Origin: a virus
DNA: 64,000 nt
Strand: one strand, 5' to 3'
IMG/VR virus record: IMGVR_UViG_3300025840_000015
Coordinates: 1 to 64,000 of that record
The first letter of the stretch is position 1; every line of letters begins with the position of its first letter. Both the position numbers and the translations under genes were made by a program. Below, one piece after another: positions 51,986-60,654 of this stretch. The notes below the pieces were generated by a model. The model did not search any database. It was given only the letters and a program-made list of their open reading frames with translations, and was not told the DNA's origin.

Positions 51986-52158
51986 CCTCGGTCAGTCACG
52001 ATCAGACAATCTCCATCAACCTCGATGTTTAGGTTTGTGCCCTCATACCATCCCTTCTCATCGAGAATCCACTGGGGAATTGTGATAAAAAATTCACCGC
52101 TAACTGTATCCACCTCTACGGTTGTTAAATTTTCTGCGCGATTTTTTTTCATTTTCAT
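51982..52158 (-). CDS. AbrB/SpoVT-like small DNA-binding protein
   Basis: FITIPQWILDEKGWYEGTNLNIEVDG swapped-hairpin pattern; start trimmed to MKMKKN. Confidence 0.7.
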   Translation of the reverse strand: MKMKKNRAENLTTVEVDTVSGEFFITIPQWILDEKGWYEGTNLNIEVDGDCLIVTDRG

Positions 52159-52359
52159 GTTTTCTTCTCTAGTTTTTATATAGGACTTTGAGGATTTTTG
52201 TGGGCACGAAAAATTTTTTGAATCGAGAAGCGTTTTATATTTACTTCGCGATCGTAACACTTTATAGATTAGGGTAGTTAGGGGTTTTATATACGGGGGG
52301 GGCATGGATCGGATCATCGGCGCCCCGCCCGCGCGGGGCACTGTGTTTTACGAAGATTG

Positions 52360-52388
52360 GGGCGGCAGGGTATAAAGAACTGCCGCCC
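52360..52388. terminator. GC hairpin after the 139-aa ORF
   Basis: GGGCGGCAG-N11-CTGCCGCCC; the loop contains TATAAAGAA. Confidence 0.55.
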
Positions 52389-52400
52389 GCTAAGTGTAAC

Positions 52401-52820
52401 TTAGAGTCCGAACTTTTCCCGACAGATAGGACCGATTCCTAACTCTATTGAAAGAGGGTTAGTTAGTTCACGAGCGCAACACGAGCAGGTGCCAGTATTC
52501 TGCCCGTAAAGTTTAGCGGCAGAGTAAGGATCAGCGGCGACGGATTGCACCCGTTTGATTAGATCAACCTCACCCAGATTAGTGGCGTTAGAAGTGATCC
52601 AACCCAGATAAATGTTGCTCATTGTGCCCCACTGATTAACCTCTTTATCGTGAGAAAAAACATACATTTTTCCCTGATATTTCGAGGGTTTAACTATAAA
52701 GTCTTGGAATCGCATTGTGATTCGCTTAAGACCGCGATTCTGTGCCTCTTCAATTGCATTAATGATCCCGCTAAAGTTATGGGCGGGAATGGCATTGTGG
52801 CGGATGATGGGATGGCGCAT
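52401..52820 (-). CDS. Protein with C-terminal DUF6011-like zinc finger
   Basis: CSCCARELTNPLSIELGIGPIC. Confidence 0.8.
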   Translation of the reverse strand: MRHPIIRHNAIPAHNFSGIINAIEEAQNRGLKRITMRFQDFIVKPSKYQGKMYVFSHDKEVNQWGTMSNIYLGWITSNATNLGEVDLIKRVQSVAADPYSAAKLYGQNTGTCSCCARELTNPLSIELGIGPICREKFGL

Positions 52821-52915
52821 GATGCTTACCGGTGGTTTGGTTGGTGCGGGTTCTGCCCCGCGTGATCTAATGGTAAAGAGTAAGGGGGGGAGAATGCCCC
52901 CCCGTTAACATTAGT

Positions 52916-53215
52916 TCACACTCCCAGGAACCGGGCGATCCGCTCACGCTTGCGAAGCGGCAGGAGGCGTTTGTAGGAAACAAAGGAGCGGCGCCCAATG
53001 CTGTATTCATAGCGGCGCACCATCCCTTGTGCCGCCATCTCCTTAAGAAGGATGGAAACGGTGGTGCGTGCCTCCTTGGGCATCCCCAGCGCCCGGTTGA
53101 TCTCAGAGGGTCCAAGACCGTGGCGGGTTTTGTCCCCATCCATCGGCAGAACCGACAGGATCGCCCATTGGTAGGTTGCGCCGAATGCCTTGCGATCGGT
53201 GATGGTGGTGAACAT
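52916..53215 (-). CDS. Winged-helix DNA-binding protein
   Basis: LGPSEINRALGM...TVSILLKEMAAQGMVRR followed by a beta wing. Confidence 0.7.
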   Translation of the reverse strand: MFTTITDRKAFGATYQWAILSVLPMDGDKTRHGLGPSEINRALGMPKEARTTVSILLKEMAAQGMVRRYEYSIGRRSFVSYKRLLPLRKRERIARFLGV

Positions 53216-53279
53216 GGTTCAGTGGTGGTGAACGACCCCCATAAATTACCGGATCCACAGGAACCTGCCAACGTGGGGT

Positions 53280-53303
53280 TGTGACACCTTTAGGATTGGC
53301 ACA
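53280..53303. promoter_or_regulatory. 24-bp palindromic element (representative of about 12 copies)
   Basis: TGTGACACC-N6-ATTGGCACA, upstream of TTGGCA-N17-TAATTT on the minus strand. Confidence 0.7.
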
Positions 53304-53314
53304 ACCCCAGTTTG

Positions 53315-53506
53315 TATAAAGAATAAAACAAGGATTGCAAGATATAAAGAATAAGACAGGACTGAATGTAAAGAATAAACCACACCACTGACCAATAGTT
53401 TACATTCAATCCTGTGTTATTCTTTATACTCAGAGAAAATATAAAGAATAAAGAACTGATTAGGATTCATTCTTTATTCTTTATACTCAGTGTTAAGTAT
53501 AAAGAT
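53315..53506. repeat. AT-rich cluster of TATAAAGAATAA motifs forming inverted repeats
   Basis: 30-bp arms 53343-53372 / 53399-53428 (28/30 match); 16-bp perfect arms 53440-53455 / 53470-53485. Confidence 0.9.
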
Positions 53507-53512
53507 TAAGAT

Positions 53513-53623
53513 TTATTTCTTTTTCCTCCTTTTGTTTGCTGATTGTTTCTTCGGTGTTAGAATGTTCTTAAACCTTTTATCAGGACGTGATTTACCATCC
53601 CGATGAATCCATTTGTTTGCCAT
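53513..53623 (-). CDS. 36-aa basic peptide
   Basis: MANKWIHRDGKSRPDKRFKNILTPKKQSANKRRKKK. Confidence 0.5.
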   Translation of the reverse strand: MANKWIHRDGKSRPDKRFKNILTPKKQSANKRRKKK

Positions 53624-53628
53624 GTTCT

Positions 53629-53793
53629 TTATACAAACTGTGCAGGTGAACCACAAGACTGATAGAATCTAATCATTCTCTCTGCCTCTTCCTTTGTAGT
53701 GAAAGATTGTGTTCGCCATTGGCATTCATTATATGGTGATATGTATTTAATTGTGAAACCAATTGAATTAATTTGTTTTTGATTGTTGTTCAT
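53629..53793 (-). CDS. 54-aa hypothetical protein
   Basis: MNNNQKQINSIGFTIKYISPYNECQWRTQSFTTKEEAERMIRFYQSCGSPAQFV. Confidence 0.65.
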   Translation of the reverse strand: MNNNQKQINSIGFTIKYISPYNECQWRTQSFTTKEEAERMIRFYQSCGSPAQFV

Positions 53794-53880
53794 TGTTTGG
53801 TGTTTGTTTTAATGTTGTTTTATTGTATTGTGCGCACACATCTCGTCGAGATTCTGTATGCGCACATCTCGTCGAGATTT

Positions 53881-54015
53881 CTATACTTCCTCAACCTCCA
53901 ATCCAAGGAGTTGATCAACAGTAACCTCCAAAAGTGCTGCCAATTCTTCATCACTCATCCATGTGATGTCGATCGGCATTTCTTCGATCTGTGCGGTGGT
54001 GGTGAAGTGATCCAT
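53881..54015 (-). CDS. 44-aa acidic protein
   Basis: MDHFTTTAQIEEMPIDITWMSDEELAALLEVTVDQLLGLEVEEV, with an ACC-rich leader. Confidence 0.65.
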   Translation of the reverse strand: MDHFTTTAQIEEMPIDITWMSDEELAALLEVTVDQLLGLEVEEV

Positions 54016-54101
54016 GGTTTCTGGTGGTGGTGCGGGTTCCTGTCCCGCTTGCTCTAATGGTAAAGGGTAATGGGGGCGTTGCCGCCCCCCTGGCAGACGG
54101 T

Positions 54102-54311
54102 TCAGCGATTGGCACGACGGCGGCGGATCTCATCGCCATAGGTGTGCGCCTCATCGTCGTAACGACCCTCAGCGATGGGGTTCCATCCCCGCATTGCCTC
54201 AGCGGCGCGGCGGGCATCCTGGGCGCTCCAGAGCAGCGCCTCATCGCTCATGCTCTTGGCACGTGCCTCCCAAGTGGCGAAATCAGCGGCGGTGGCGTAA
54301 GTGGCGATCAT
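54102..54311 (-). CDS. 69-aa hypothetical early protein
   Basis: MIATYATAADF...YDDEAHTYGDEIRRR; start trimmed to follow the TACAAT box and leader. Confidence 0.7.
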   Translation of the reverse strand: MIATYATAADFATWEARAKSMSDEALLWSAQDARRAAEAMRGWNPIAEGRYDDEAHTYGDEIRRRRANR

Positions 54312-54450
54312 GGTCCGGTGGTGTGAACTGCGATAATTGTAGCAGATAATTGGGGGGGGAGAGAGGAGGAGATCGATCGAATCCCCATTGTGACGATTTA
54401 TGAACAGTCCACCGATTGTCTGATTCTGGCGCCGGGCGCGTGTAGAATAA

Positions 54451-54512
54451 GGGGACAATCAGATGAGGGGTGGGGTAACCCCGTTGATGAAATGGTCGCC
54501 ACGCCCCCTGCG
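54451..54512 (+). ncRNA. Candidate structured small RNA, copy A
   Basis: TAGAAT -10 box, then GGGGACAATC..GAGGGG..GGGGTAACCCC..GATGA..TCGCCAC GCCCCCTGC; paralogue at 56620. Confidence 0.5.
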
Positions 54513-54638
54513 CAATTTTATTTGCGAACAATTGTGAAATGTGTTGACCCGACCGGATCCCCTATGCTAGGATTGGGGTAGAACCTTTTGTATGTTACGG
54601 ATTGTTAAAGAAAGGGGGCGTTGCCGCCCCGTTGTGGT

Positions 54639-54926
54639 TCAATGGAAAAAGTCGTAAGGCGTTTGCTCTGTCGGATCATATCCCTCCCAGAGCATTGCTA
54701 CAGTGCTAGCAATGCTGCGCTCTGCCTTCCAGCAGTCTAGGATGACATCCAGTGCCCAACCGTCATCAAGGGTGGCAGGGGGGCATTCCTGCGCCTCCAC
54801 AGCATCCCAGAACTCTCCAAAGGACTCATCCTGCCAGCAGGATTCGGAATCCAGCGCCATGCGCCGGTTGTATTCTTGGCGCTCTTGGCGCTCCATCTCT
54901 GCAAGGGTGCTGTTGTGAAAATCCAT
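54639..54926 (-). CDS. 95-aa acidic hypothetical early protein
   Basis: MDFHNSTLAEMERQE..., own -10 box and ACC leader, GC hairpin downstream. Confidence 0.7.
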   Translation of the reverse strand: MDFHNSTLAEMERQERQEYNRRMALDSESCWQDESFGEFWDAVEAQECPPATLDDGWALDVILDCWKAERSIASTVAMLWEGYDPTEQTPYDFFH

Positions 54927-55001
54927 GGTTCCGGTGTGGTGCGGTTTGCTTTGAAAGTATAGAGGCAAAGGGAGCAGGGGTCAACCTGCCCCCCGTAGGG
55001 A

Positions 55002-55175
55002 TCAGACCGTCTGATCCTTAATGGCATCATGTACCTCTCCCAGCATGTCATACCAACGGGTTAGACCTTTTTGACCCATTTCGTGCCCTTTGGCGGACAG
55101 GAGCGCGATTCGGATCGTATCCCAATCGCCTGCGGCAAGGGTGACGGTTTTGTTTTTGGTGGTGGTGGTGCTCAT
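55002..55175 (-). CDS. 57-aa hypothetical early protein
   Basis: MSTTTTKNKTVTLAAGDWDTIRIALLSAKGHEMGQKGLTRWYDMLGEVHDAIKDQTV; promoter ATGACG-N17-TAGGAT. Confidence 0.65.
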   Translation of the reverse strand: MSTTTTKNKTVTLAAGDWDTIRIALLSAKGHEMGQKGLTRWYDMLGEVHDAIKDQTV

Positions 55176-55264
55176 CAGTCTCGGGTGTGGTGCGGGTTCC
55201 TGTCCCGCTTGAGCATATCCTACATCAGAAGGGGGGATCCGTCATCCCCCCCAGTGGACGGTGG

Positions 55265-55927
55265 TCAGACCGTCACAATCCTGTCTGCCTTTTTCTTTGC
55301 TGTTCCATGCGACGGAAAACATACAATAACGTTACGGTCGGAGTTAGCACAAATGCCGCAAGTTGCACATGTAACATTATCATGAATCTTTGCAGGGCAG
55401 ACTACACATTTGCGACCGTTGGTTGTTGTGAAGAACCGGCGCGATTCTGTGGAGGGAACAACAGCAACGGCAGGGATTCCGTGCTCTGTCATCACTTTAT
55501 CAGCAACCTCTACAGACTCACAGGATGCAGAGATTGTGAAACCTTTGCTGTTTGCTTCCTTGATAATTTCAAGGTTCTCAGTGTTGAGAACGTGGTGAGT
55601 GTAAGTGTAACCTTTGCGCCCTTTGTTTGCTGCCACCAGATCAGCAACACTGGCGCGATCGATGTTCCCATCAACATGGGGCAGATCACCGGATACGTTG
55701 TGGCGCCAGATCTGACCGCGTGCAATCCGGCGAACCTTAGAGAGGAATTCCTCCCATACAATGCCGGTTTCGGATACCTTGCGCCATGCCGCGCCCTGGA
55801 AGTGGAATTTGGCGTAGCACGCTTCCGCCATGGGGCAGGTAGCGGGGCAGGATGCCTGTTCAGTGGTGCTGGCAGGGATCCTGCCAAGTTGGGCGTTGCT
55901 GCTGGCGGGGTTGAAAGAGACGCGCAT
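55265..55927 (-). CDS. Cys-rich phage protein, possible Fe-S (radical-SAM-like) enzyme
   Basis: SCPATCPMAEACYA, RHNVSGDL, GYTYTH, CPA...TCATCGIC...H. Confidence 0.7.
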   Translation of the reverse strand: MRVSFNPASSNAQLGRIPASTTEQASCPATCPMAEACYAKFHFQGAAWRKVSETGIVWEEFLSKVRRIARGQIWRHNVSGDLPHVDGNIDRASVADLVAANKGRKGYTYTHHVLNTENLEIIKEANSKGFTISASCESVEVADKVMTEHGIPAVAVVPSTESRRFFTTTNGRKCVVCPAKIHDNVTCATCGICANSDRNVIVCFPSHGTAKKKADRIVTV

Positions 55928-55997
55928 TGGTGTGGTTGCGACTGATCAAACAATAACAGGGGGGAGAGCGCCTGCCAACCCCCCTAGTGGACGGTTA

Positions 55998-56477
55998 TCA
56001 GATCGCCACACCATCCTGGCGAAGGCGATCCACAAGACGGGATGCCATGGCGCCACAATGGGGGCACTTTGTGGCGTATTTGATCTCTGATTTAATTTTA
56101 TGATCTTTCACCCGTGCGAACTTATAACGATAAACTTTGCTAAGTGTAAGCATTGCCTGCCTTTTTGTAATGTCGTTTTCATCAATCTCACGGTAGATTG
56201 TCACCAGATTGTGATAGGACAGGGTAGGATTACGGCGGATTTGATTCAATCGTGAAACTGCAAGTTTGGCGAATACTGCATCACCAGTAGTTTCAGTGAC
56301 TACATCAATCAGATAATCGTGAAAAGCAATAAGTTCTTCTTCTTTCTTTTGCTGCTGTTCTTTCTGTTCTTCCTCTTTCTTGATTGATTCGATCTGGGAG
56401 GTAATTTCCCGGAAAGATTCCACGAACTGCTTCTGCAGTTCGTTCAGGTTTGCGGTGAGAGTTTGGAGGTCGCTCAT
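55998..56477 (-). CDS. 159-aa protein with N-terminal coiled coil and C-terminal CPHC
   Basis: Start trimmed to MSDLQTLTAN. Confidence 0.75.
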   Translation of the reverse strand: MSDLQTLTANLNELQKQFVESFREITSQIESIKKEEEQKEQQQKKEEELIAFHDYLIDVVTETTGDAVFAKLAVSRLNQIRRNPTLSYHNLVTIYREIDENDITKRQAMLTLSKVYRYKFARVKDHKIKSEIKYATKCPHCGAMASRLVDRLRQDGVAI

Positions 56478-56619
56478 TGTTCTGGGTTGGGGTGGAATCG
56501 GATCCGTTTGTCCGATGGGCACAGTATGCCCCGGCAAGACGGGGCAGATCAACCAACCCTGTGCCACTACCAGAACCGTCCACAAGGGCGTTGTAAGGTC
56601 TTAAAATGCTCTATTGTAT

Positions 56620-56682
56620 GGGGACAATCGAAAGAGGGGAGGGGTATCCCTGTAGACGACAATACATCGCCACCGCCCCTGC
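56620..56682 (+). ncRNA. Candidate structured small RNA, copy B
   Basis: TATTGT -10 box, then GGGGACAATC..GAGGGG..GGGGTATCCC..GACGA..TCGCCAC CGCCCCTGC. Confidence 0.5.
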
Positions 56683-56707
56683 CATAAAATAATTGTTTCA
56701 ATATGTT

Positions 56708-56880
56708 AAAAAAAAGGATCCCGCACCACCAGGATCCTCTAGACTCCAATCACCAGATACGCTATACCCATATTTTATCTTAACGTTCTCGCAGAGTGAC
56801 TTTTTTTTTCTTTACAATGTGGGCAAACTCCTTCCCACACGGATAACTTTATTTTAGAGAGGCAAATCCCTTCCTCTTAA
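56708..56880 (-). ncRNA. Candidate non-coding RNA or long 3' UTR with twin hairpins and a terminator
   Basis: AGAGG-AAGGGATTTG-CCTCT and GTGGG-AAGGAGTTTG-CCCAC hairpins, ending in AGGATCC-N10-GGATCCT plus a T run. Confidence 0.45.
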
Positions 56881-56882
56881 GA

Positions 56883-57077
56883 TTATTGTATCATCCAATG
56901 TGGGTCATTGTCAAGTGCAACCCAGAAAAAGTTACGATTGTTTGCACTTCTTAAGAATAGTTTGTTGTTCACGATTTGTTCAATAATGCATACAGAATCG
57001 CGTGCCATTAAATTGGCGAATCTGTTTTTTGCTTTTGATGAAATCGGTTTGACTTGAATGGTTTCCATGATGTCCAT
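56883..57077 (-). CDS. 64-aa hypothetical protein
   Basis: VKPISSKAKNRFANLM...FFWV...DPHW; TATAAT upstream. Confidence 0.75.
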   Translation of the reverse strand: MDIMETIQVKPISSKAKNRFANLMARDSVCIIEQIVNNKLFLRSANNRNFFWVALDNDPHWMIQ

Positions 57078-57171
57078 TGCAATGTGTTCATTATAATGGA
57101 TGGTGATAATCTCGTCGAGATTGTGTGTGCCAATTGTTATGGTGTCACAATCTCGACGAGATCCTTTTAGA

Positions 57172-57393
57172 TCACTGCTTGACGAGAGTCAGTTGATTCT
57201 CACGCAGTGCATTGTTGAAAAACTTACCAACGCTACCATCAGAATTGATGGTTTCCGTCAGAGTCGAAATAAACTGTTCTGCATTAACCACACCGTAGGT
57301 ATAGTCTCGACCACCAGTAAAGGTGACGGTCACTTGATCATCGACAACATCAGAGATAGATTCGATGGCGGAAGAAGTGAACTTAGGGAACAT
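57172..57393 (-). CDS. KTSC-domain protein
   Basis: SSAI..I....VTVTF..G..Y.Y.V...SVGKFFN. Confidence 0.8.
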   Translation of the reverse strand: MFPKFTSSAIESISDVVDDQVTVTFTGGRDYTYGVVNAEQFISTLTETINSDGSVGKFFNNALRENQLTLVKQ

Positions 57394-57464
57394 GATTTAG
57401 AATTGTGTAAAGGAACAGATGGAGTCTTTAGGGCGCTGCCGTTCCCTGTGTGATCAGTCTAGCA

Positions 57465-57611
57465 TCAGAACTCGATGGTGTCTAGTGTAGGACAAACAGT
57501 TTCGCCAGATTCACAAGTGTCACTCCCATCACAGAGAACATCAAGAATTCGAAGGATTTCTGATCCATTGGAACCTTTGCGGAGTGCGTGGATGTAAAGT
57601 TCTTTAGTCAT
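57465..57611 (-). CDS. 48-aa hypothetical protein
   Basis: MTKELYIHALRKGSNGSEILRILD; TAGAAT upstream. Confidence 0.65.
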   Translation of the reverse strand: MTKELYIHALRKGSNGSEILRILDVLCDGSDTCESGETVCPTLDTIEF

Positions 57612-57681
57612 TGTTGCCTTTGGTTGACTCTGTAATTCTAAGGGCATGGCGGGGACATTGCTGCCCCCCTTGTGCCACTGC

Positions 57682-58188
57682 TCAGACTGTCATAAGGAGA
57701 GCAGGTTGTTCTGTAACGAAATCATACTCTTGGGTGTTAGTGTCACCCCAACCCAGTTTCCAACACTGCCATCCCAAACCAGGAGTAAACAGATAGCACC
57801 ATTCCTCTCCACAATCACCTGAGAGAAACTCATCGAAGTTGCTCATCCTAGGAGGAGCATCTTCACCTCGCTCACTATAATACAGTGGAGCAGGTTTTGC
57901 TTTTACTGGAGAATAGACCCACTGTTCATTATCAGTGGTGATATATTCTACAGTTCTGTTACCCTCAGAATCATAGATCTCTTTTTTGAGAGGAACAGAA
58001 TCCCAACGATGTGTGGTGTGCAACTGCCCCATATCACCACCGTTGATGAGTTCTTCTACCTGTTCTTTATACAGGTAGTTGTCAATAAGTTGGCGACCAT
58101 TGTGTTGAATGTAACCATCATAATGACAGTAAACACTAATGATTTGATCGGGTCCGAGAGCAAGACCGATGCGAGAGCGAGTTCCCAT
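57682..58188 (-). CDS. Conserved phage hypothetical protein
   Basis: MGTRSRIG...SVYCHYDGY...GEEWCYLF pattern. Confidence 0.8.
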   Translation of the reverse strand: MGTRSRIGLALGPDQIISVYCHYDGYIQHNGRQLIDNYLYKEQVEELINGGDMGQLHTTHRWDSVPLKKEIYDSEGNRTVEYITTDNEQWVYSPVKAKPAPLYYSERGEDAPPRMSNFDEFLSGDCGEEWCYLFTPGLGWQCWKLGWGDTNTQEYDFVTEQPALLMTV

Positions 58189-59133: not shown

Positions 59134-59301
59134 TCATGCATAATGCTTATATGCAAGATCCTGATAGTCATTGTCACACCTATCATAATCCTCATCATTG
59201 TCGTCATAAGACTCAAGACGAGAATAATGTTCGTAGTATGAGTCTTCGTCAAGACAATGATCATTGATGGTGATGTAGTCGAGATCGTAGTCGTCGTACA
59301 T
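59134..59301 (-). CDS. 55-aa Asp/Tyr-rich protein
   Basis: MYDDYDLDYITINDHCLDEDSYYEHYSRLESYDDNDEDYDRCDNDYQDLAYKHYA. Confidence 0.6.
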   Translation of the reverse strand: MYDDYDLDYITINDHCLDEDSYYEHYSRLESYDDNDEDYDRCDNDYQDLAYKHYA

Positions 59302-59533
59302 AACTCGTCGAGATTCTACTGTTTACTTGTGTATTGTAGCATGATTCTCGTCGAGATACAACTAATTGCCTGATATATTCTCGTCGAGATCTCATACCAT
59401 ATATGTATAAAAACGTCAAGGAATTGTGTGGATTTGCAAATTTTTATGTCTGGATGTGAAGATTTTTGCCGGGCGCTTGACATTTTCGGCGTCTTGTGAT
59501 AGTGCGCACGCCAAACTCACAAGACCTGGGCAC

Positions 59534-59635
59534 ATTACCATAAGATATAAGAGTTATTACCATAAGATACCAGGCACATTACCATAAGATATAAGAACCA
59601 TTATCATAAGATATAAAAGTTATTATCATAAGATA
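59534..59635 (+). repeat. Five direct repeats ATTAYCATAAGATA with an exact 22-bp period (iteron-like)
   Basis: Copies start at 59534, 59556, 59578, 59600, 59622; an AT-rich tract follows. Confidence 0.95.
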
Positions 59636-59774
59636 TAAGAGTTCAAAACCCTTTATTTATACAATTTAACTTCATTTTAATCTCTTATATCCTGATTTCA
59701 ACAAAAAATGCCCAAAAAAGCACTGTTACAATATAAATTACATACATACAATACAGTTAAACACTATTGCCCCA

Positions 59775-60479
59775 ATGTCAGGCGCCATTTACCTCATAAT
59801 CAACAAACAAAATGGACACAAATACATAGGAAAAACCACAGATTCAATAGATTCTGCCTGGAAAGAGCATATTATCCTATCAAATCGTATGGATAGGAAT
59901 CCACTACATCTTGCTCTTCGTAAGTATAAACCTCACATGTTTTTACTTAAACCAATAGAGGATGTAGATAATAATTTAGATGAAAGATATGATTATTGGT
60001 TAGATAGATATAATCCAGAATACAATTCTAACTCCTTTACTGATGAGAATACTGAAGTTAAAACAATTGAAGTAAAGAAAGAAATAGTTTCTACCCCCAA
60101 AAAGAAGTCTAAAAGACCAGAAAAAACCAAGGGATACACAATACAAGGTATGAATCTGGCAACTGGTGAGATTAGAACATGGGAATCTGCCAGGGAGGCA
60201 GCACGTGATATTACTGGTGATGCAAAGAAGAATTCAAATATATTACGATGTGCTCGTAATGGATATAAGTATTATGATCATGTATGGAAAATTATTGAAG
60301 ACTTTAGATTCAGAAAAGTGAAGGCGGTAAATAGAAAAACATGGCAGGAATTTCACTTTGACAATATAGCAGATGTATTTAAAAAGACCGGTGTTAAAAG
60401 AGATCCACGTTTAAAGAAAGTATTAGAAAGTAATGGTAGATTAACATGGAAAGGATATATGTGGTTCTATACGGAGTAA
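59775..60479 (+). CDS. GIY-YIG-family protein with two NUMOD1-like DNA-binding repeats, predicted catalytically inactive
   Basis: AIY-X10-YIG, WESAREAAR..I..C....Y...W and F.NIADV...L......GYMW; Ala28 and Tyr72 at the catalytic Arg and Glu positions. Confidence 0.85.
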   Translation: MSGAIYLIINKQNGHKYIGKTTDSIDSAWKEHIILSNRMDRNPLHLALRKYKPHMFLLKPIEDVDNNLDERYDYWLDRYNPEYNSNSFTDENTEVKTIEVKKEIVSTPKKKSKRPEKTKGYTIQGMNLATGEIRTWESAREAARDITGDAKKNSNILRCARNGYKYYDHVWKIIEDFRFRKVKAVNRKTWQEFHFDNIADVFKKTGVKRDPRLKKVLESNGRLTWKGYMWFYTE

Positions 60480-60483
60480 ACAA

Positions 60484-60654
60484 ATGAAACGCCCATTAAA
60501 CACATGTTTTGATTGCGACTATACATGGTATCCACGTGGTCATTATATAAGTAAACACTGTCCCCATTGTGGTTCTAATAACGTAGGCATACAATACATA
60601 CAAATAATCCCACTACTGTTAATAGTGGGACTACTGTTGTTTATTTTAATTTAA
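60484..60654 (+). CDS. 56-aa zinc-ribbon protein with C-terminal TM helix
   Basis: MKRPLNTCFDCDYTWYPRGHYISKHCPHCGSNNVGIQYIQIIPLLLIVGLLLFILI. Confidence 0.7.
   Translation: MKRPLNTCFDCDYTWYPRGHYISKHCPHCGSNNVGIQYIQIIPLLLIVGLLLFILI

Follow-up and report, generated by a model that had tools for sequence, protein, structure and literature searches.

A probably nuclease-dead GIY-YIG homing-endonuclease relative beside a conserved non-coding module in T4-like cyanophages

Homing endonucleases are usually pictured as passing through a cycle of invasion, fixation, and decay. The locus described here raises the question of what a relative of these enzymes does when both catalytic residues appear to be gone, the reading frame is intact, and a phased array of DNA repeats lies just upstream. 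The DNA analyzed (the window) comprises the first 64 kb of the 116-kb virus contig IMGVR_UViG_3300025840_000015 from IMG/VR (estimated completeness, 54%), which DNA and protein matches place among the T4-like cyanophages (Kyanoviridae), with the freshwater Synechococcus phage S-SRM01 as the nearest isolate. Nearly all genes of the window lie on the minus strand, and the GIY-YIG gene is the sole plus-strand open reading frame (ORF) of at least 130 amino acids that is free of overlap with minus-strand ORFs. An earlier reading made from the letters of the window (the sequence-only reading) had rightly singled it out as exceptional and had placed its start at 59470, which is the beginning of the upstream non-coding region; the ATG is at 59775. 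We favor, with a probability of about 0.6, the explanation that the product is a nuclease-dead, fold-retaining derivative of a homing endonuclease that acts as a site-specific DNA-binding regulator at a module independent of it.

The 234-residue protein matches Pfam PF01541 (GIY-YIG) at 25 bits (cut-off, 22.6) and PHROG 3404 over its whole length (E, 6e-27); a full-length match to TIGR01453 (group I intron endonuclease) is below threshold (44 versus 56 bits). An AlphaFold model (mean predicted local distance difference test score, 83) has three folded parts and a disordered basic linker, with a predicted nuclease fold at residues 2 to 87, the low-confidence linker at 88 to 117, and predicted DNA-binding repeats at 118 to 177 and 179 to 233. 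Modeled residues 2 to 87 align with the I-TevI catalytic domain (1LN0; Z, 11.8; root mean square deviation, 2.3 Å) and also resemble T4 EndoII (Z, 8.0) and UvrC (Z, 6.4). Modeled residues 116 to 177 resemble the C-terminal DNA-binding part of I-HmuI (residues 106 to 174; Z, 7.3) and the helix-turn-helix of I-TevI (1T2T, residues 198 to 244; Z, 5.2), and their strand-strand-helix-helix-strand unit occurs again in the model at residues 179 to 233. The NUMOD1 label of the sequence-only reading survives in part: a Pfam search of the protein at E ≤ 1 gave no NUMOD1 match, and the modeled structure resembles the DNA-binding parts of I-HmuI and I-TevI. Among 44 members of a wider family alignment, 14 match NUMOD1 and 12 match I-HmuI_NUMOD-like.

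HMMER alignment to the I-TevI chains 1LN0 and 1MK0 puts Ala28 (GCC, 59856 to 59858) at the position of Arg27 and Tyr72 (TAT, 59988 to 59990) at that of Glu75. Each of the two codons is two changes from an Arg or Glu codon, and the Lys neighboring the catalytic Arg is Ser in the clade of the window protein. Tyr6, Tyr17, Gly19, His32, and Asn84 are retained, and the ORF is free of frameshifts and stops. On these points, namely, a kept GIY-YIG scaffold, replacement of both I-TevI catalytic residues in an intact frame, and an Ala codon at least two changes from Arg, the sequence-only reading was correct. Asp73, immediately after Tyr72, is Asn in relatives with 97%, 92%, and 83% identity and so is no conserved substitute for the Glu. 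The Protein Data Bank entries of the I-TevI catalytic domain are themselves mutants, R27A (1LN0) and E75A (1MK0), both reported to be catalytically dead (Kowalski 1999; Van Roey 2002). By analogy with them, the window protein is very probably unable to cut DNA.

The ORF belongs to a free-standing GIY-YIG homing-endonuclease family of T4-like cyanophages. Besides the three close relatives just mentioned, more than 150 loci on viral and metagenome contigs carry relatives with 30 to 47% identity. Among 126 unique coding sequences of the family, both the Arg and the Glu, whose presence in homologues the sequence-only reading had counted against its own idea, are kept in 35; Arg only is lost in 18, both are lost in 73, and Glu only is lost in none, so that about 72% lack at least one catalytic residue. 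The residues seen at the Arg27 position are R, E, V, I, A, K, T, and Q, and those at the Glu75 position are E, T, K, L, V, Y, I, M, R, and Q. In a maximum-likelihood tree inferred with the two catalytic columns left out, a minimum of 13 state changes is needed for Arg and 8 for Glu; an independent-pairs test of coupled loss was underpowered. Distant GIY-YIG relatives, which have only the N-terminal domain in common with the family, retain both residues in 94 of 101 cases; the intact state is therefore ancestral, and the family is unusually loss-prone. The order of loss, in which Arg appears to go first and Glu never alone, is as expected if loss of Arg ends catalysis and leaves Glu to drift. 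Scaffold residues stay conserved in the non-intact sequences (Tyr6, 100%; Tyr17, 97%; His32, 89%; Asn84, 96%). Where Glu stands at the Arg position, the Glu position is nearly always non-acidic (T, L, V, K, Y, R, or M), a pattern that might reflect relocation of the charge and a rewired site in those clades, which do not include that of the window. Literature searches on catalytic loss in this family returned no paper.

Selection was estimated from the window and its relative at locus L208, whose protein is 92% identical. The nonsynonymous rate (dN) is 0.043, the synonymous rate (dS) is 0.414, and their ratio (omega) is 0.10 over the whole gene; the nuclease domain has 0.20 and the DNA-binding half 0.05. 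In each case nonsynonymous changes are far fewer than under neutrality (binomial p, 4e-4 to 3e-15; 3e-15 for the whole gene). The dN/dS check proposed in the sequence-only reading thus came out in favor of constraint. Other clades lacking the Arg and Glu pair have median omega values of 0.07 to 0.22, and clades with both residues have 0.25; all of these are Nei-Gojobori pair values that are mutually non-independent. The Ala/Tyr state is common to the 97%, 92%, and 83% relatives, and a relative with about 40% identity that has it perhaps belongs to the same clade (Shimodaira-Hasegawa-like approximate likelihood ratio test, 91; long branch). The stem of this clade is 1.11 substitutions per site long and lies inside a supported group with Arg- and Glu-bearing members. 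A burst of change followed by constraint favors an altered but selected function over decay. Judged by these ratios, both domains are under purifying selection, and a selected, non-cutting DNA-binding role is plausible. The family as a whole loses Arg and then Glu in most lineages yet keeps the entire protein, nuclease fold included, under purifying selection, and it offers a natural series on the role of a non-cutting GIY-YIG scaffold.

The gene lies downstream of a conserved non-coding module with a promoter-like element. A 22-mer of this element is identical across loci whose proteins share only about 35 to 45% identity with the window protein, and a scan of viral contigs for it gave 119 loci, 101 of them with enough downstream sequence. 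A family gene follows on the same strand, 158 to 451 nt downstream, in 54 of the 101; in the 47 that lack it, about 200 to 300 bp of non-coding repeats and a hairpin run into convergent minus-strand genes. When an nhmmer profile made from the gene-less loci alone was run on 85 gene-bearing loci that had been found independently, it matched upstream of the gene in 77. There is one copy of the element per locus. S-SRM01 has the module without the GIY-YIG gene and carries an HNH endonuclease gene at the spot, on the opposite strand (L003, 5150 to 5930). In a BLASTN search of a phage collection, the canonical element was found only in S-SRM01 and in one marine single-cell virus record. The module core, present in freshwater and marine T4-like cyanophages, is more conserved than the neighboring proteins, and literature searches on it found no paper; the module is previously undescribed.

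The module begins with a GC-rich box, followed by the sigma-70-type promoter-like element, a zone of direct repeats of the ATAAG type that grows and shrinks among loci, often a second set of short repeats and a hairpin, and an AT-rich end. The short repeats come in two alternative sets, each made of two to three direct copies of a 7- to 8-bp word and one inverted copy that yields the hairpin: an ATTCTCA-type set (in L100, L112, and L126, for example) and a TTCCACA-type set (in L111, L116, and L166, for example). Across the loci, the type of set tracks neither gene presence nor catalytic class; the window has neither set, and the array unit of L208 contains the ATTCTCA word. The window element has a -35 hexamer, TTGACA (59477 to 59482), a 17-bp spacer, a TG (59497 to 59498), and a weak -10 hexamer, TAGTGC (59500 to 59505), and would act as a rightward promoter. 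An 8-bp inverted repeat, perfect in the window, stands on both sides of the -10 hexamer (59491 to 59498 and 59518 to 59525); it is mismatched in L208 and many other loci, and we make no claim of covariation for it. Genes downstream of the module vary (DUF6171, a 2OG-Fe(II) oxygenase, and other DUFs) and are accessory, with no replication genes among them.

Comparison of a gene-bearing locus (L015) with a gene-less one (L184) locates the insertion. The two are 93% identical past the 3' junction, which coincides with the stop codon of the gene, and the gene with a leader of about 110 nt sits between the AT-rich 3' end of the module and the terminator of the convergent gene. Presence/absence polymorphism of this kind was established for the family; an empty allele of the clade of the window itself was not found. 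By these alignments, the family genes take one stereotyped insertion site, the 3' end of the module, and given the HNH gene at the same spot in S-SRM01, the landing site is used by two endonuclease families. In this, the family resembles T4 Seg and other free-standing phage homing endonucleases, which are likewise stand-alone genes among conserved phage genes, on the strand opposite to their neighbors, present or absent between near-identical flanks. It differs from them in that the landing site is a conserved non-coding module and not a gene and in that most of its unique sequences miss a catalytic residue and are nonetheless under purifying selection.

The repeat array itself was delimited with Tandem Repeats Finder (period, 22; copies, 5.0; 59534 to 59643). 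Its 14-bp core recurs five times without mismatch at 59534, 59556, 59578, 59600, and 59622 (span, 59534 to 59635), is spaced at exactly 22 bp, and is absent elsewhere in the 116-kb contig; 131 bp separate the end of the array from the ATG. The five phased repeats and the AT-rich tract (GC content, 20 to 24%) described in the sequence-only reading are thus present as described. Many relatives carry tandem arrays 100 to 350 bp upstream of the start codon. The period is about 10, 11, or 20 to 23 bp, and the units differ but have an ATAAG-type core in common; array density is 1.58 per kb in that zone versus 0.054 per kb elsewhere in those loci. The array of L208 has been rebuilt from a different 21-bp unit between flanks that are about 93 to 95% identical to those of the window (a by-eye estimate from the alignment of non-coding stretches), and the DNA-binding half of its protein has only 7 nonsynonymous changes relative to that of the window. 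The repeat zone therefore turns over fast and is untied to the catalytic state of its neighbor, and the proposal that repeat sequence would track the DNA-binding part of the protein is not supported by L208. Strong arrays stand beside 4 of 26 intact homologues (15%) and 15 of 47 non-intact ones (32%), so that the proposed co-occurrence of Arg/Glu loss with an array is not significant (Fisher p, 0.17).

Since 47 of 101 loci have the module with its repeats but no family gene, and arrays are found beside intact homologues, the array is not a private set of sites of this gene. The locus comparisons indicate that the module is independent of the family gene and that the window array is its repeat zone. 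What stands of the repurposing proposed in the sequence-only reading is accordingly the protein half (lost residues, an intact frame, constraint, and a stem nested among intact relatives); the private array does not.

Several features point to the array being a set of DNA-level binding sites for a factor other than, or besides, the window protein: the phasing is exact, its motif also occurs as the inverted pair around the -10 hexamer, no RNA structure was detected, and it has a rightward sigma-70-type promoter on one side and a leftward late-promoter consensus on the other. Compared with shuffled sequences, the two strands of the array fold with z scores of -1.2 and -1.1 and the leader up to the start codon folds with a z score of +0.75; a structured RNA or hidden ribosome-binding site in the window array and leader was rejected on this ground, and an Rfam search of 59250 to 59800 found no family. 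An ATAAATA-type motif occurs in many related loci at the place equivalent to the late-promoter consensus. A reading of the repeats themselves as late promoters fits some opposite-strand arrays in relatives and does not fit the array of the window. A second 22-bp tandem duplication (2 copies; 80% match) at 59425 to 59467, just 5' of the -35 hexamer, extends the AT-rich stretch there. Some repeat units of L163, L196, and L124 contain a strong ribosome-binding motif (GGAGG), a short spacer, an ATG, and a stop 2 to 4 codons later; these resemble tandem mini-ORFs, a feature missing from the window units.

Under the explanation that we favor, a homing-endonuclease family has landed at the 3' end of an independent module, and the clade of the window has replaced the catalytic Arg and Glu and the neighboring Lys and would thereby have lost cleavage. 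The nuclease fold and both DNA-binding repeats have been kept by purifying selection, and the non-cutting protein would bind at or near the old target of the family, either the module or its junction. Its likeliest role would be to modulate its own expression or transcription from the module promoter, much as I-TevI acts at its operator. I-TevI is both a nuclease and an autorepressor, binding its operator through the DNA-binding domain without cutting it (PMC2988022). The window protein is like I-TevI in its N-terminal GIY-YIG fold, its flexible linker, its C-terminal helix-turn-helix-like unit, and its full-length, though subthreshold, TIGR01453 match. It differs in that its gene is free-standing, whereas I-TevI is encoded in the T4 td intron; in having two tandem DNA-binding repeats, no detected zinc finger, and replaced Arg and Glu residues; and in that its operator is hypothetical.

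Five points weigh against this explanation. Loss of cleavage is judged, for this as for every member of the family, by analogy with I-TevI; the DNA target of the window protein is a predicted one; and expression of the gene from the module promoter is uncertain, given the poor -10 hexamer. Dead-looking nuclease domains are as constrained as intact ones and keep their scaffold residues, which could mean residual or rewired activity. Finally, strong arrays are enriched where a family gene is present (18 of 40 gene-bearing modules, or 45%, versus 7 of 35 gene-less ones, or 20%; p, 0.03), and a functional link between gene and repeats is possible.

That last enrichment is one argument for a multi-site operator, in which the five repeats would be bound by the two DNA-binding repeats of the protein and would repress or roadblock the upstream promoter. 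The array stands 3' of the promoter-like element and 5' of the gene, its 22-bp phasing is exact, and autoregulation by I-TevI is a precedent (PMC2988022). This remains doubtful: arrays with the same motifs are present without any family gene, like repeat units stand beside proteins of different clades, the array was rebuilt in L208 next to a nearly unchanged DNA-binding half, and array presence does not follow catalytic status significantly. The proposal in the sequence-only reading that the array serves as the iterons or operator of the protein meets the same objection, since the repeat-bearing module lacks the gene in nearly half of the loci and in S-SRM01.

Another alternative is that the protein still cuts or nicks through other residues of a rewired active site. 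Purifying selection on the nuclease domain equals that in intact members; Tyr6, Tyr17, His32, His45, and Asn84 are retained; and the many lineages with Glu at the Arg position and a non-acidic residue at the Glu position could have a migrated metal ligand. The clade of the window, however, has Ala and Tyr at the catalytic positions and Ser for the adjacent Lys, its sole nearby acidic residue, Asp73, is replaced in the closest relatives, and single substitutions reportedly suffice to kill I-TevI. The absence of Glu loss with Arg kept (0 of 126) is also as expected if loss of Arg frees Glu. We consider continued nuclease activity unlikely.

Similarly improbable is a broader alternative, in which the module, with its fixed place at the head of the early operon, would be an undescribed cis-acting hub, for example a transcript-primed origin of the T4 oriF/oriG type or a master early-control region. 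Homing endonucleases would have landed beside it repeatedly, and their dead descendants would be kept as trans factors that bind and tune it or that interfere with it in co-infecting rivals. Plasmid iteron origins work with a Rep initiator; in T4, oriF and oriG consist of a promoter and a downstream unwinding element, and oriE consists of repeats. The module is like these in having helically phased direct repeats by an AT-rich tract, a promoter that reads into the repeats, and a single copy, and it differs in that the locus lacks a Rep-type gene, the module can do without the adjacent gene, and the array is rebuilt between near-identical phages. A transcript-primed T4-type origin at the module is possible. 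To our knowledge, T4-like cyanophages have no mapped replication origin and no mapped master early-control region. The module, a newly described conserved non-coding feature with a rapidly changing repeat zone that at least two endonuclease families use for landing, is a concrete candidate for such a region and is carried by a cultured phage, S-SRM01.

Simple decay, in which a fixed homing endonuclease degenerates with no function of its own, would be the expected fate of such genes after fixation and would suit the many losses of catalytic residues in the family. We regard it as quite improbable here, in view of a dN/dS of 0.10 at a dS of 0.41 without frameshifts or stops, conservation of the Ala/Tyr state down to 83% identity, and constraint on both domains.

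The ICP1 protein Odn, of the T5orf172/GIY-YIG superfamily, retains both catalytic residues, cleaves the iterons of a rival element, and has a DNA-binding domain copied from the initiator of that rival (PMC8263062). It shares with the window protein a likeness to homing endonucleases and a link to phased repeats within a non-coding control region; its intact Arg/Glu pair and its rival-derived DNA-binding domain are not found in the window protein. An iteron origin with the dead endonuclease as initiator, as the sequence-only reading had proposed, can draw on Odn as a nuclease of this superfamily that recognizes origin iterons (PMC8263062), on the 22-bp phasing with its adjoining AT-rich tract, and on the element being single-copy in the contig, but it is very unlikely, since a gene missing from about half of the module carriers cannot be the essential initiator of the module, the protein matches profiles of the GIY-YIG and group I intron endonuclease kinds alone, with no Rep/DnaA-like or other replication-initiator domain, intact-nuclease homologues occupy the equivalent position, and the cumulative GC skew has no turning point at the site.

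Table 1. Features of the GIY-YIG locus and its control region (window coordinates)
Feature	Position	Strand	Remarks
Hyperacidic 55-aa gene	59134..59301	-	First gene of leftward early operon; conserved left neighbor of the module; from ORF list and synteny with S-SRM01
11-bp palindrome TCTCGTCGAGA, three copies	59303..59389		Divergent control region
Promoter-like element	59444..59536	+	nhmmer profile from gene-less loci only; E, 4e-9
Tandem array, 5 units of 22 bp	59534..59643	+	Fast-changing repeat zone of the module
AT-rich stretch, GC 20 to 24%	59600..59750		Between array and gene
Exact T4-type late-promoter consensus TATAAATA	59654..59661	-	Pointing into the array; read from sequence
GIY-YIG homing-endonuclease-family gene, 234 aa	59775..60479	+	ATG 59775, stop 60479
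Small gene, 56 aa	60484..60654	+	CxxC...CxxC zinc ribbon and hydrophobic tail; start 4 nt past the GIY-YIG stop codon
Hairpin, 15-pair stem	60603..60635		End of plus-strand island; terminator-like, shared with convergent minus-strand genes

A divergent control region heads the leftward early operon, and the module forms its far side (Table 1). Of 69 unique loci, 64 have a leftward gene about 190 to 215 nt upstream of the -35 hexamer of the module; it encodes a small hyperacidic protein with the N terminus M-Y-D/E-D/E-Y-D/E and is the anchor gene of the control region. The palindrome TCTCGTCGAGA has 14 strand matches in the window versus 0.3 expected, all of them intergenic and in the early region, with copies between 52056 and 59389 at 52056, 53841, 53867, 57110, 57151, 59303, 59346, and 59379. 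Copies are plentiful in related loci as well, where they fill the interval between the hyperacidic gene and the promoter-like element.

A curated family search with the 56-residue zinc-ribbon protein gave no match. Homologues with 44 to 60% identity lie 3' of the family gene in five other loci (six including the window) and directly behind the module, with no endonuclease between, in three gene-less loci; the plus-strand island is therefore modular. The block of small early genes coincides with a high-GC island at 52000 to 58000 (44 to 55% GC) in a genome that is otherwise about 30% GC.

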